Virus record (IMG/VR): IMGVR_UViG_3300034053_000018
Span: 1-62,801 of that record
DNA length: 62,801 bases
Strand: one strand, 5' to 3'
From: a virus
Taxonomy: Duplodnaviria > Caudoviricetes
Shown here: in pieces, positions 526 through 4,560 of the stretch
Position numbering within the stretch: position 1 is the first letter of the stretch
Layout: every line of letters starts with the position of its first letter
The notes under the pieces: model-generated
The model's database searches: none
The model's input: only the letters and a program-made list of their open reading frames with translations
Told to the model about the DNA's origin: nothing
Made by a program: the position numbers and the translations under genes

Positions 526-3500
526 TTACGCTGTATAGGGGTTAGCGTAGGTCAGTCGCGTCGGCTGTGAGTAGTCCCGCTCGTACGGCTCCTCGTCGGG
601 TTCTGCCTTCTGCATCTCAAGCAGCTTGTTGTCGCGCACGAACAGCATGGCTCGGGTCATGGTGTCGATCAGACCCGTCTCGGTGTCGTTAGGGAACCGG
701 TCACACTGCTCCAACAGGGGTCGTGACCAGCTAATCGGCTGGCCTGCGGCCTTGGACGAGGGCATGACATAGACCGCCCCCATGTCGAATATGGGCGCGC
801 TCTGATGTACCCGCTCGATCAGGTCAATGTCACCGTTCTTGTAGTTCGGCACACCAATGTTAGCCCCGCGCAGGTCAAGCACCAGCGAGTCACCGGCCCC
901 CTCGGAGCCGATCAGCACTGTGTCGGCCTTATACACCCGCGCACCCTTGGTTGGGTTGCCATACTCGGCGTGCCAGTCCCTGATGATCTTCTGCCGCAGC
1001 GCCGTGTAGGTCATCTTCTCTGTCCAAGCGTCGAGCAGCAGCATGACCCGATCCCCCTTGTACTCACACACGCCCCACACCGTACCCGCCGTGGCGTCGT
1101 TGCTCGTCTTCTCAGTGTAGGCACCGTGGTAAGACTGGATCACGTTGTCGAGCACCGGGATGTCACCGCTCCACACCCTGAACTGGTCAGAGGTGAGCAG
1201 GCCGCTCCCGACAGGGTACGCTAGGCTGATCGCCAGTGCGTCGCCGCAATTTTCAACGAGGATACCGTTTGCGTAATAGACGTTATCCTCGGTAAGTGTC
1301 AGGTTATATGTTTCTGTCTTTGTTTGCGAGCTTACCTGAACAGAGACGAGAACAACATTTTTTAGGCTTAATCCGACGACACTCAAACAGCGATCCGCAA
1401 ACAACACAAGATTTTTCAACAAACTCGGGTTTGATGTTTGGGGCTTGGGCGCACTTGTGACTACAGTACATTCGAGTTGTGTATTTATGATGAACGAATT
1501 CTTTGTTGCAGGTTTTGCAAACAGACACTTCGCTTTTGTTCCTACGATACGCTGAAGCCTGCATACAGTTGTTTGAACAGAATTTCGTACGATCTGGGAA
1601 ATACGTTTCATACGTCTTCCCGCAGTATTCACAAGGTTCAGGAGCGGGTACAGGTTGTCGATCTTCCCATGTGTTCTTTCCGTGTTCAGAGTGCCATGCT
1701 CGACCTTCGTCACTACCGTGCCACGCTGGGGCTGCTTCTCTGGCTTTAACGAGTCCTTCCCATTGGTTTGTTGATCGTTCCTTGTCTGCCATACATTCGA
1801 CCATGTGGGCGCTGATGTGATCCCTACCGAAGACACACTCAAGGTTTTCAATCCGATTGTCTGTCCAATCGCCGTTTTTATGGTGGATATGGTGTTCTTC
1901 AGGAATCTCCCCAAAATGCTCGATCCAAATTCGACGATGAAGAAGTCTTTCCGCGACAGTGGTTCTCCCTGACTGATAGTATCGACCTGATGTTTGAAGC
2001 CAGAATGGCTCACTCTTGTAAATGATTTTGCTAGGAATCTCCACAGTAACCTCCTAATAAATGAGTCGAGTTCTATACCATTGGACATTGCCAATGCGTT
2101 AAGTCTAACCCAACCTTTATCGAAAGTAAATACCCTGTGGCTTCCTTTCCCTGATAACACGCGACCATCTGAAAACGTAACTGTCGTGATCGACTCCACA
2201 ACGGTCTCATGCACCATCAATACCCGTGAAGCGCCAAACGGTGTTGTCACCAGATCACCCACTCGTACCTGCTCAATGGGGATTCGTCCATGAGGTGTGG
2301 TGATCAACGTACCAGCTACGAAGCAGTCCGGTGACGGTATCCCGCGCTTCTTCATGTCCCCCTTACTCTCCAACTGTATGCTGCCGTTAGAGGACGTCTT
2401 GTACTGAGGCGCGCACAGGTCGGCCTTAAGCGCCTTGTTGTCTGCTGCTGGGTTGTCACCCATGCTGCCGATGGTGGCGGTGCGTAGCCAGTCGCGCATT
2501 GTCCCCCACATCTCACTGCGCTTGTTAAAGTAGGCGATGGGGTTGTCTGCCCTGCTGCCGAAAGACACCCCACGCACCTTGTAGTTCTGCTCGACCAGCC
2601 GGTCAAGTACCCCGGCACCCAGACCACCCTCGTCGACGATAGTCAGGTCCGGCTTCCAGACCTTAATCGCCTCGATCACCTTGCCAACGAGCGCCATTGT
2701 GTCAAGCCCGTGGTAGCGGATCATCCGCAACAGTGTGCGTCCCCGACGTATCGCCAATATGGACGCGTCGTTGCCGAACCGCGCCACGTCGACCCCCATG
2801 ACGGTGGGTGCGTTAGGCTCTGGAGACGGCTCGCGCTCCATCGCCTCGTCGACCAGTTTGGGTGATATGAACTGGTTGTCGCCCACGGAGGGGAACTGAC
2901 CATACACCTCGACCTTAGCCTCATCTGAGTCCTCACCATACCGAGCGATGATGTTCTCAAACGGTGTGTGGTTAATCCCCTCGACCGTGCGACTGTCGAT
3001 CTGACGTGTCCGCCACATGGACTTGTTACGGTGGAAACAGTCGAAGAACGCCCCGGTGTTCTGTCGCGGGTTACTGAACGTGAGCCAGAACCGGTCAGGG
3101 ATGTTCTCGGTAAAAACCCCCTCCTGCACCGTCCATATGTTCTCGGGTATGGAGCTGGCCTCGTCAAAGATGGCCAACTCACCGTCGAAGTTGTGCGCTC
3201 CGGCAAACGCGTCCGGGTTCTCCTCAGACCATAGCTGACCAGCAATGTAATAGTAGCGCGTGGACTTACTGAGACCCTGTGGACTCTCAATAAACTCCTT
3301 AAACCACTTGGACGGCGTGATAGCGGTGGAGGCGATGTCGAAAAACTCGCTGTTAATCCCCCGCGCCACCCACTTGGCAATCTCAGGGAACGTCTTGGCG
3401 CGCAACTGAGGCTCACCGTTCGCCGCTACCCATGTGCTGGACCCAATCCGGGTGCTCATGAACCAATGGCTGATCATCCCAATGAACGCCGACTTCCCCG

Positions 3501-3756
3501 GACCACGACCCGAGGCCATCGCCATGCGGAAAAAGTCAGGTAAGGTGTTGGTGATGGTCTTCTGCTGGGTCGCTTGTCGCAGATACTGTTCCATCTCCAC
3601 CATCACCTCGCGTTGCCATTTGCGAGGCCCATCAAATTCCTTCAAATCACCAGTTTTCCACTCATAAGCCCATAACGCGAACTTCAACGGTGAAAAATAG
3701 AAGTCGCTGGAGAGCATTCTCTCCAATATGGCGCTATTCTTGGGTGAAATCGCCAT
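526..3756 (-). CDS. terL: Terminase large subunit, intein-containing, with an extra degenerate C-terminal nuclease domain
   Basis: Walker A ASGRGPGKS, Walker B AIFDEAS, FSNP motif, nuclease GVDVARFGND ... SPD/CGDALA; start taken at MAISPK. Confidence 0.95.
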   Translation of the reverse strand: MAISPKNSAILERMLSSDFYFSPLKFALWAYEWKTGDLKEFDGPRKWQREVMVEMEQYLRQATQQKTITNTLPDFFRMAMASGRGPGKSAFIGMISHWFMSTRIGSSTWVAANGEPQLRAKTFPEIAKWVARGINSEFFDIASTAITPSKWFKEFIESPQGLSKSTRYYYIAGQLWSEENPDAFAGAHNFDGELAIFDEASSIPENIWTVQEGVFTENIPDRFWLTFSNPRQNTGAFFDCFHRNKSMWRTRQIDSRTVEGINHTPFENIIARYGEDSDEAKVEVYGQFPSVGDNQFISPKLVDEAMEREPSPEPNAPTVMGVDVARFGNDASILAIRRGRTLLRMIRYHGLDTMALVGKVIEAIKVWKPDLTIVDEGGLGAGVLDRLVEQNYKVRGVSFGSRADNPIAYFNKRSEMWGTMRDWLRTATIGSMGDNPAADNKALKADLCAPQYKTSSNGSIQLESKGDMKKRGIPSPDCFVAGTLITTPHGRIPIEQVRVGDLVTTPFGASRVLMVHETVVESITTVTFSDGRVLSGKGSHRVFTFDKGWVRLNALAMSNGIELDSFIRRLLWRFLAKSFTRVSHSGFKHQVDTISQGEPLSRKDFFIVEFGSSILGRFLKNTISTIKTAIGQTIGLKTLSVSSVGITSAPTWSNVWQTRNDQQTNGKDSLKPEKQPQRGTVVTKVEHGTLNTERTHGKIDNLYPLLNLVNTAGRRMKRISQIVRNSVQTTVCRLQRIVGTKAKCLFAKPATKNSFIINTQLECTVVTSAPKPQTSNPSLLKNLVLFADRCLSVVGLSLKNVVLVSVQVSSQTKTETYNLTLTEDNVYYANGILVENCGDALAISLAYPVGSGLLTSDQFRVWSGDIPVLDNVIQSYHGAYTEKTSNDATAGTVWGVCEYKGDRVMLLLDAWTEKMTYTALRQKIIRDWHAEYGNPTKGARVYKADTVLIGSEGAGDSLVLDLRGANIGVPNYKNGDIDLIERVHQSAPIFDMGAVYVMPSSKAAGQPISWSRPLLEQCDRFPNDTETGLIDTMTRAMLFVRDNKLLEMQKAEPDEEPYERDYSQPTRLTYANPYTA
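1304..2044 (-). CDS. HNH homing endonuclease with C-terminal zinc-ribbon repeats, nested out of frame inside the intein
   Basis: LHRRIWIEHFGEIPEEHHIHHKNGDWTDNRIENLECV (HNH_3-like); three CxxC..CxxxC units; AGGAGG 5 nt before the GTG. Confidence 0.9.
   Translation of the reverse strand: MEIPSKIIYKSEPFWLQTSGRYYQSGRTTVAERLLHRRIWIEHFGEIPEEHHIHHKNGDWTDNRIENLECVFGRDHISAHMVECMADKERSTNQWEGLVKAREAAPAWHGSDEGRAWHSEHGKNTWEDRQPVPAPEPCEYCGKTYETYFPDRTKFCSNNCMQASAYRRNKSEVSVCKTCNKEFVHHKYTTRMYCSHKCAQAPNIKPEFVEKSCVVCGSLFECRRIKPKKCCSRLCSGKLANKDRNI
2050..2055 (-). promoter_or_regulatory. Shine-Dalgarno site of the nested HNH gene
   Basis: Minus strand reads AGGAGG-ttact-GTG. Confidence 0.85.
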
Positions 3757-4360
3757 CGATAGTGACCCCTCCAAGTGCGCTGATCTGCTGCTCGCGCTTG
3801 TCCAGCAGCGCCCTGACGTCAATATTGACGTTCGTGGTCAAATCCACCTGCTTGGACTCACCATAGCGTCGCTTGTTGTGCGACTGCACCTTGAACTTGT
3901 ACTGAGCCAGACGGAGCTTGCTGCGATCAATGTCCTCCATCTCGTTATCTGTGCCATCTGCTATGCGATCCATCTTCTCTAACAGTGCTTCAGTACCAAT
4001 TTCCTGTGCTTCCTCGTATCGTTGAACGCGAGTCGGGTCTTTCTTGATCCAACGCATGAACCGACCATAGTTGATATTGCGGGGGTCGTTGTCAATGTAG
4101 CTGGTGACGCTACCACCCTCGACCAAAATGTCCAGTACCGGCTCGAACGCTGCCTCGAACGTGATCATCTCGTTATGAACCTGATCTGCGGTGACGGGGA
4201 ACCGGGGCAGGGCGGTCTGTTGAGCCGGTGTTGGGGCAGATGATAACCAATCAGGTAAGGTAGCAGGGATTCTGTCCATAGGAGTGACCCTCCGTTCCGA
4301 ACGTGGCACATAGTACGGCATCGATGCGATAGGGACACCAATGTCGGGGACTTGTGTCAT
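3734..4360 (-). CDS. terS: Terminase small subunit (Sf6 gp1-like)
   Basis: Adjacent to and overlapping terL; RFMRWIKKD..YEEAQE..IAD..DIDRSKLR..RRYGE pattern; start uncertain (4360 or 4399). Confidence 0.85.
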   Translation of the reverse strand: MTQVPDIGVPIASMPYYVPRSERRVTPMDRIPATLPDWLSSAPTPAQQTALPRFPVTADQVHNEMITFEAAFEPVLDILVEGGSVTSYIDNDPRNINYGRFMRWIKKDPTRVQRYEEAQEIGTEALLEKMDRIADGTDNEMEDIDRSKLRLAQYKFKVQSHNKRRYGESKQVDLTTNVNIDVRALLDKREQQISALGGVTIDGDFTQE

Positions 4361-4502
4361 GGGGTAGCGATGAGGTTGTTGTGAGGACTGTTGTGTCATT
4401 TGACCATTTTGGGGCAGATGGCACACATTGTCAATTGGATGTCTGTTGGGGCTGTGGGGGTTTGGTTCTATGGGTCTGGGAGTAACCCGAATCTCAAAAA
4501 TC

Positions 4503-4560
4503 AAAAAAATTAAAAATTGGGGGCGTTGTGAATTTTTGAAAAAATTAAAAATTGGGGGCG
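4503..4560. repeat. Duplicated 22-bp A-tract motif AAAAAATTAAAAATTGGGGGCG upstream of terS
   Basis: Two copies at about 4504-4525 and 4539-4560. Confidence 0.85.

Follow-up and report, generated by a model that had tools for sequence, protein, structure and literature searches.

An HNH_3 endonuclease gene nested out of frame in the terminase intein of a metagenome-assembled phage

Can one stretch of phage DNA encode a protein-splicing intein in one reading frame and a separate homing endonuclease in another? This question is raised by the large terminase subunit gene (terL) of the IMG/VR virus record IMGVR_UViG_3300034053_000018. The whole record (62,801 bp; CheckV completeness 100%) was analyzed and is referred to here as the window. 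A previous sequence-only reading of this DNA proposed that terL is interrupted by an intein whose middle also encodes an HNH nuclease in a shifted frame. On the evidence presented below, we put the probability at roughly 85% that the locus is a composite selfish element, consisting of a class-1 intein in terL and an HNH_3 endonuclease gene nested within it in the +2 frame, which spreads by the splicing and homing mechanism outlined below.

Two genes in one stretch of DNA

terL is a single continuous open reading frame (ORF) of 1098 codons (526..3822, minus strand). The intein occupies 359 of these codons (2325..1249, minus strand); it begins with Cys (C1, codon 2325-2323), ends with ...VEN (terminal Asn, codon 1251-1249) and is followed by a further Cys (+1, codon 1248-1246). 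A second gene is read from the same strand in another frame. Its start codon GTG (2044-2042) follows the sequence AGGAGG (2055-2050), the 7-nt AGGAGGT upstream of the start matches the complement of the anti-Shine-Dalgarno sequence, and its stop codon TAA is formed by the TAT-AAC (Tyr-Asn) codons of intein block F. The features of the locus are as follows.

1304..2044, minus strand: HNH_3 / I-HmuI-like homing endonuclease gene lying entirely inside the intein, +2 of the terL frame; 246 aa, then TAA
2050..2055, minus strand: Shine-Dalgarno-like AGGAGG, 5 nt before the HNH GTG, read as Arg-Arg in the terL frame
2045..2325, minus strand: intein N-terminal splicing region (blocks A-B), with C1 and block B His63; Hint_2
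1336..2044, minus strand: stop-free linker of about 235 aa in the terL frame inside the intein, with no predicted fold or Pfam domain
1249..1335, minus strand: C-terminal splicing region of the intein (blocks F-G), with ...VEN as its last residues and Tyr-Asn codons that the HNH stop overlaps
2326..3822, minus strand: terL N-extein, comprising the ATPase domain and the greater part of the nuclease domain; PHROG phrog_2, terminase large subunit
526..1248, minus strand: terL C-extein, whose first residue is the +1 Cys (CGDALA...); terminase large subunit by PHROG phrog_38
3734..4504, minus strand: terminase small subunit gene (terS), the upstream neighbor; PHROG phrog_1482, E 1.3e-13

On re-reading the sequence, all coordinates previously assigned to terL, the intein, the HNH gene, its ribosome-binding site and the block-F stop proved correct. 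In the terL frame, the AGGAGG is read as two tandem AGG (Arg) codons, and the GTG-G of the HNH start yields a Trp codon; relatives have Trp at the same place.

Profile searches assign a different family to each frame. Pfam Hint_2 matches the first 37 residues of the intein (E 1.1e-8). HNH_3 matches the other frame (E 2.3e-14; 53.2 bits, cut-off 24.8) and is the sole Pfam match there at E<=1. The check for Hint and HNH profiles that the sequence-only reading had suggested was therefore positive in both frames, and its statement that the intein frame holds no LAGLIDADG or HNH motif was borne out, as Pfam returned neither there at E<=1. The HNH protein also matches PHROG 15471, HNH endonuclease (E 1.3e-26), and its profile matches the homing endonuclease I-HmuI (1u3e, E 2.6e-4); no match to Endonuclease_7 was found at E<=1 in Pfam. 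Three CxxC...CxxxC (Cys4 zinc-ribbon-like) modules can be recognized in the translation, in agreement with the three zinc ribbons reported previously. Across 44 nested HNH genes, thirteen columns do not vary; they comprise the catalytic His/Asn residues and the first Cys4 module, and all are intact in the window. H54, H55, N63, N67 and H76 are among the residues invariant across the 44 sequences. A blastn search in distant mode gave no match for window positions 1100-2500 in GenBank phages, and hence this region has no close DNA relative among them.

Predicted structures agree with these assignments. In an AlphaFold2 model of the intein frame, made with a 44-sequence alignment, predicted local distance difference test scores (pLDDT) are 84-97 at residues 1-90, 81-96 at residues 331-359 and 35-63 between them (residues 98-322). 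Compared with VIA-align, the two ends together match mini-inteins and bacterial intein-like (BIL) domains, including 2lwy (Z 18.7, root-mean-square deviation (rmsd) 1.7, 125 aligned residues) and the gp41-1 intein 6riz (Z 18.4, rmsd 1.8, 124 aligned). Matches of the mini-intein type span Z 15-18.7, with 30 chains at Z>=8 and 31 at Z>=5, and the middle matches only generic long helices at Z<5. The N- and C-terminal splicing regions are thus predicted to form a HINT fold together. The model of the HNH frame has a mean pLDDT of 85.9, with 86-98 over residues 1-200, and its top structural match is I-HmuI 1u3e (Z 7.5, rmsd 7.2, 112 aligned). Foldseek gave no match for this model in the PDB at E<=0.001, the best again being I-HmuI (E 0.15).

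Judged by its junction residues, the intein is of class 1, having Cys both at position 1 and at +1 of the C-extein, and C1, H63, L356 and N359 are invariant in 44 aligned inteins. It is inserted at SPD|CxDA, probably the final conserved motif in the nuclease domain of TerL. The C-extein is collinear with the homologue P0002, which lacks an intein and reads ...SPD-CGDALAVSLAYP... across the same site. When P0002 was compared with PDB sequences (phmmer), the terminase matches were all weak (E 0.09-0.26), aligning SPD-xxDA to the nuclease domains of large terminases, and are too weak for naming a catalytic residue. In the related locus L015, Terminase_6C ends just before the intein. That weak alignment and the domain end in L015 suggest that the site is the last nuclease motif.

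The following mechanism is proposed for the element. terL mRNA would be translated straight through, giving a precursor whose intein holds an unfolded linker of about 235 aa. The splicing regions would assemble the HINT fold and cut out the 359-aa intein, joining the exteins into a TerL of about 717 aa. Splicing would rescue TerL in this way, and the middle of the intein would need only to stay stop-free. Ribosomes would also initiate at the internal AGGAGG-N5-GTG, producing the 246-aa nuclease separately. In mixed infections, this nuclease may cut or nick intein-less terL alleles near the SPD/CxDA codons, and repair from the occupied allele would copy the whole element into the cut gene.

The length of the spliced product depends on the terL start. 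The longest terL ORF begins at TTG 3822, whereas homologues begin at the position of M23 (ATG 3756, MAISPK...), and the gene call for the window terL in the protein collection likewise starts at ATG 3756 (1076 aa). ATG 3756 is likely to be the true start on this sequence evidence; it would give a spliced TerL of 717 aa, the length of P0002, its nearest relative. The N-terminal 499 residues of terL match PHROG phrog_2 (E 6e-33) and the last 240 match phrog_38, also terL (E 5.7e-11). The Walker A sequence ASGRGPGKS is invariant in the TerL alignment (A4). The C-extein measures about 240 aa in the terL clade of the window and about 40-70 aa in the more distant intein-bearing relatives P0012-P0036, and the clade of the window therefore has a C-terminal extension of about 200 aa.

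Chance, artefact and selection on the two frames

Could a second open frame of this length arise by chance? The sequence-only reading had estimated odds of about 1e-5. This figure is too small, as synonymous recodings and codon shuffles leave the terL frame open far more often. In an exact dynamic-programming calculation that kept the HNH protein constant, 0.46% of synonymous recodings with uniform codons left the terL frame open, as did 3.5% with the codon usage of the exteins and 16% with the gene's own, already adapted usage. The terL frame was also open in 303 of 20000 codon shuffles.

A survey of relatives provides stronger evidence against chance than these odds. IMG/VR was searched by a pattern scan with tblastn confirmation, and the best 80 of at least 194 confirmed loci were kept. 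In 61 of the 80, an open frame of the same strand (363-1237 aa) extends over the full HNH match, with the HNH +2 of the host frame in 56 of these and +1 in 5. The same +2 layout was found by tblastn in terL of four mutually unrelated GenBank phages (Tetrasphaera TJE1, C. difficile phiCDHM19, Rhodobacteraceae LS06-2018-MD07 and Acinetobacter Highwayman), where the HNH match falls inside an annotated terL that reads through the intein. With the window included, its overlap phase is shared by 61/66 nested loci. As controls, we used 27 loci without an open spanning frame, namely free-standing genes and a split Vibrio case described below. None has an open +1 frame (0/27 versus 61/80): this frame holds 1-21 stops in each, on average 3.8 per 100 codons. 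The +2 frame of the controls has 9.9 stops per 100 codons, and the third frame of the nested genes 9.2. The open host frame is selected.

The spanning frames carry inteins at a uniform position. Two small hidden Markov models (HMMs), built from 5 sequences each and correspondingly weak, matched the intein N-block in 60 and the C-block in 46 of the 61 spanned loci; the 15 of 65 spanning ORFs that gave no C-block match reflect the weak model and do not prove a missing C-block. Among eight host ORFs sampled, all have intein or Hint domains and five have Terminase_6N or Terminase_3. In all 45 loci for which both borders are defined, 68-100 codons separate C1 from the HNH start and 10-23 codons separate the HNH stop from the terminal Asn; the corresponding distances in the window are 93 and 18 codons. 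Of the features whose conservation the sequence-only reading had proposed to test, the alternate frame is conserved, the ribosome-binding site is uneven among relatives (see below) and the stop falls on the Y-N or Y-D codons of block F, as in the window, in 13/45. In two loci, terL contains a second intein upstream of the HNH-bearing one (L014:640-4347, 1236 aa; L061:826-4167, 1114 aa), and the upstream intein of L014 has LAGLIDADG_3 and Hom_end matches.

The pattern of substitution indicates which frame is constrained. Position 3 of the HNH codon is position 2 of the host codon, where change nearly always alters the amino acid. In all ten related nested-locus pairs compared, differences are enriched at the third position of the HNH codon (for example 1/0/10 and 25/22/55 over the three positions), and amino-acid identity in the HNH frame exceeds that in the host frame (10/10). 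The window lineage shows the same tendency against near-identical environmental contigs. The listed differences are synonymous in the HNH frame in 11/15 (contig X1) and 14/24 (X5) cases, and in the terL frame in 4/15 and 6/24; a further 32 differences stand outside these counts. The HNH frame is therefore under purifying selection, with relaxed constraint on the overlapped intein frame. Taken together, the predicted folds, the third-position substitutions and the uniform geometry support the dual-coding interpretation first made from the sequence.

These data also bear on whether the HNH gene is still in use. It may be a relic, disused within a vertically inherited intein and leaving the open frames behind; in keeping with this, recent transfer is not supported by any close intein-bearing relative. 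Such disuse is improbable given that all 13 family-invariant residues are intact, that the strong ribosome-binding site is kept and that most differences from the environmental copies are silent in the HNH frame.

An assembly or sequencing artefact would be a simpler source of the layout. Two compensating indel errors could shift the middle of a canonical intein whose HNH domain lies in frame; the record was assembled from a metagenome, and in-frame HNH inteins do exist according to a preprint discussed below (bioRxiv 10.1101/2025.01.02.630785). The same frame offset recurs, however, in 56/80 independent IMG/VR loci and the four GenBank phages. The HNH frame also has its own ribosome-binding site, start and stop, and in relatives it is closed by stops just upstream of the start. 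In addition, contigs of four other studies cover the region gap-free (1171-1322, 1231-1726, 1479-1768, 1680-1959, 1922-2170 and 2039-2189). They span both HNH ends and the C-terminal intein junction with no indels listed, and the compensating indels named beforehand as a possible refutation were not seen in them. Each sequencing dataset with DNA of the window holds a small share (0.05-0.15) of the stretch. We consider the chance of such an artefact negligible.

A further possibility concerns how the nuclease is made. Instead of initiating separately, ribosomes translating terL could slip into the HNH frame, yielding a fusion of N-extein, N-terminal intein region and HNH. Internal Shine-Dalgarno-like elements and tandem AGG codons can stimulate frameshifting in E. 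coli, and the internal AGGAGG provides both just upstream of the nested gene. Against this, no slippery heptamer was seen downstream of the AGGAGG in the window sequence, relatives have ATG, GTG or TTG at the conserved HNH N-terminus, and in many of them a stop closes the HNH frame a few codons before that start. Frameshifting is accordingly a very improbable source of the protein, and initiation at the GTG of a composite element is the preferred explanation.

Empty sites and distribution of the element

If the element is mobile, close relatives should include empty sites. The eight closest TerL proteins in a collection of 5.8 billion proteins (P0002-P0009; 705-722 aa) are 63-77% identical over the N-extein. 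Four of them (P0002, P0005, P0007 and P0009) are intein-free exactly at SPD|, where SPD runs directly into CGDALA, EGDSLA, IGDAIA or NSDALA, as expected for a mobile element. In a separate set of 80 terL relatives from IMG/VR (48-60% identity), the small 5-sequence HMMs found no intein, and seven junctions read among them are SPD-AADA or SPD-MAEA. The same type of intein occupies the same site in TerL proteins only 38-49% identical, and the hosts sampled for the nested element fall into more than one terminase family (Terminase_6N and Terminase_3). The HNH element is thus sporadic, with empty target sites in close relatives.

The position of related genes raises the question of whether the nuclease serves the phage as well. 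Free-standing HNH homologues adjoin terS, terL or portal genes in all seven GenBank phages inspected (Salmonella Shemara, Exiguobacterium vB_EauM-23, Lactobacillus CL2, Pseudomonas PAE1, Acinetobacter BP10, Sphaerotilus SN1 and Brevundimonas Poludnitsa; L006-L012), the copy in Poludnitsa being unannotated. The HNH might accordingly have been co-opted, either as a terminase-associated packaging or cos-cleavage factor or to attack related phages in the same cell, instead of acting in homing alone, and a functional link between HNH and terminase is raised in the brucellaphage paper (PMC4422536). Its domain is of the HNH_3 / I-HmuI-like type, however, and not PF01844. Moreover, the nearest TerL relatives lack the element, and 75 of the 80 IMG/VR terL relatives gave no HNH-profile match in the terL locus and up to 1.5 kb on each side. 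The HNH is therefore not a required partner of this terminase clade, and co-option seems unlikely compared with a composite element maintained by homing.

Not all relatives retain a continuous terL. Five Vibrio phage records have their HNH match flanked by Hint and terminase coding sequences that are annotated separately. In one of these, Vibrio phage 1.245.O (L003, MG592610.1, 1-3476), the two terL halves are in the same frame with 14 stops between them, and the HNH gene lies in the gap. An intein N-region (HDDA|CSSGDTL...) closes the first piece, and a C-region (...VVVHN|CDT...) opens the second. The sequence of this locus suggests a split-intein 'fractured gene' that arose from the nested layout.

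In a tree of the HNH proteins made by a quick method, nested and free-standing labels show clustering (19 changes, compared with a mean of 28.0 after shuffling), and the starred branches force only 2 changes. The nested HNH of Acinetobacter Highwayman (L005) pairs with the free-standing copy upstream of terS in Acinetobacter BP10 (L010) on an unstarred branch (Shimodaira-Hasegawa-like approximate likelihood ratio test (SH-aLRT) 91). The five nested loci with the HNH in the other phase (L029, L036, L038, L042 and L060; HNH +1, as in Brucella phage Tb) form two pairs (SH-aLRT 95 and 92), the fifth standing apart. Among the TerL relatives P0011 and P0015-P0120 (35-54% identity, 820-905 aa), many have LAGLIDADG-type domains (PF14528, PF05204), and their N-extein match is broken at about 58-81% of the query. 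This suggests that the same terL family has further intein sites.

While the evidence as a whole favors a composite selfish element, several points weigh against it. The block B Thr position of the intein is Lys60 and its penultimate residue is Glu, where the textbook residue is His; Lys60 is common to five relatives in divergent TerL proteins, and so is probably tolerated for splicing. The third CxxC...CxxxC module (window 1304-1440, HNH residues ~202-246) is missing from all ten homologues of alignment A1 and is modelled poorly (pLDDT 44-63). A Shine-Dalgarno match of at least 5 nt occurs in only 28/66 nested loci against 51/962 control start codons, a comparison that favors the nested loci, as the best of several candidate starts was set against single control starts. 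The survey counts describe the best 80 loci of a larger set. The HNH tree, with 42/90 inner branches open and only 13 starred, is too poorly resolved for a count of changes from free-standing to nested or back. Splicing, separate initiation and target cleavage by the nuclease are activities that we infer.

Significance and relation to known systems

The element of the window is ordinary for its class, and the class appears to be common in phages but under-annotated. Gene callers emit only the long terL ORF, and as a result the nuclease is invisible in most records; TJE1, phiCDHM19, Highwayman and LS06-2018-MD07 are examples in which the nested gene is unannotated. The value of the family lies in its size and uniformity. 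It offers many natural cases of one DNA under two constraints, a folded enzyme in one frame and the need to stay stop-free in the other. These could be used to study the evolution of overlapping genes, the tolerance of inteins for long unstructured inserts, and the 'splicing first, endonuclease later' model.

A broader proposal, to which we give slightly less than even odds, is that phages living today retain, in the HNH_3 family, the full route of endonuclease gain and loss by inteins, with out-of-frame nesting being common and stable. If so, the stages would be a free-standing gene beside terL, a gene nested out of frame in a terL mini-intein (the majority, 61/80) and the split 'fractured' terL of the Vibrio phages, in which the host frame between same-frame terL halves has filled with stops. 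The bias to one phase (61/66) would follow from the stop densities in the alternative frames of free-standing genes (3.8 versus 9.9 per 100 codons). Out-of-frame nesting would then be neither a rare curiosity nor merely a brief intermediate.

The novelty implied by the sequence-only reading does not hold, as the out-of-frame nested layout has been in print since 2015. The TerL intein of brucellaphages (Tb, Pr and others) has an out-of-frame nested HNH (Virol J 2015, PMC4422536), and both genes are annotated in GenBank NC_019446.1. As described there, the host is likewise terL, the intein is read through, and a whole HNH gene with zinc ribbons occupies another frame of the same strand inside the intein. 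The two systems differ in nuclease, site and phase. The brucellaphage HNH belongs to PF01844, with N-terminal zinc ribbons and the HNH core at 150-189, whereas that of the window is HNH_3 (BLASTP E 0.014 between them). The brucellaphage insertion is in the ATPase half, Terminase_6N matches lying after the intein, compared with SPD|CGDALA in the window, and its HNH is +1 of terL rather than +2.

Non-canonical inteins of actinobacteriophages, with an endonuclease VII-like homing endonuclease in frame 3, are reported by Gosselin, Arsenault & Gogarten (bioRxiv 10.1101/2025.01.02.630785), who propose the invasion of an intein by a free-standing endonuclease as their origin. As described there, they resemble the window in having a same-strand endonuclease gene between the splicing blocks, in frame 3 (+2), and a structureless in-frame middle, and the large terminase subunit is among the four host protein types of the group. 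Their nuclease is Endonuclease VII-like, whereas that of the window is HNH_3 / I-HmuI-like. No actinophage of the PhagesDB type was among the tblastn matches listed for the HNH proteins of the window and TJE1.

Outside phages, a cyanobacterial dnaX intein has a LAGLIDADG gene in the +2 frame (Phillips, DeSimone & Gogarten, bioRxiv 10.64898/2026.09.14.751524), and that preprint credits the idea to Gorbalenya 1998. It shares with the window the +2 offset, a low ratio of nonsynonymous to synonymous substitution (dN/dS) in the endonuclease frame with a relaxed intein frame, and an appeal to secondary invasion of a mini-intein; as described, it differs in its cellular host gene, its LAGLIDADG nuclease and its cyanobacterial setting, in contrast to a phage terL with HNH_3.

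Two other arrangements are related in part. In the fractured genes of Dassa et al. 2009 (PMC2677866), a free-standing-type endonuclease lies between the N and C splicing parts of a split intein, as in the window, but the host gene is in two ORFs and splices in trans, whereas the terL of the window is one continuous ORF. The 'hidden' out-of-frame HNH in actinophage DNA methylase genes (ShiLan; Arsenault et al. 2025, PMC11855218) has a GTG start, a TAA at the very end of the insertion and an open host ORF. The ShiLan insertion, as described there, lacks intein splicing domains, whereas the window has the splicing residues and a predicted HINT fold. A terminase-associated HNH packaging factor of the kind attributed to Kala et al. 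2014 in PMC4422536 would be a small HNH protein and a constant terminase partner, unlike the HNH of the window, which is absent from the nearest TerL relatives.

A limited literature search found no paper on an HNH_3 / I-HmuI-like nested family at the TerL nuclease motif or on its frequency, and no experimental proof of splicing, internal initiation or homing for any member. In the window, a complete homing endonuclease ORF lies on the same strand between the splicing blocks while the host frame stays open. On sequence grounds, therefore, the locus shares the architecture described for these systems, but its nuclease belongs to none of the families described in them (Endonuclease VII-like, PF01844 and LAGLIDADG).

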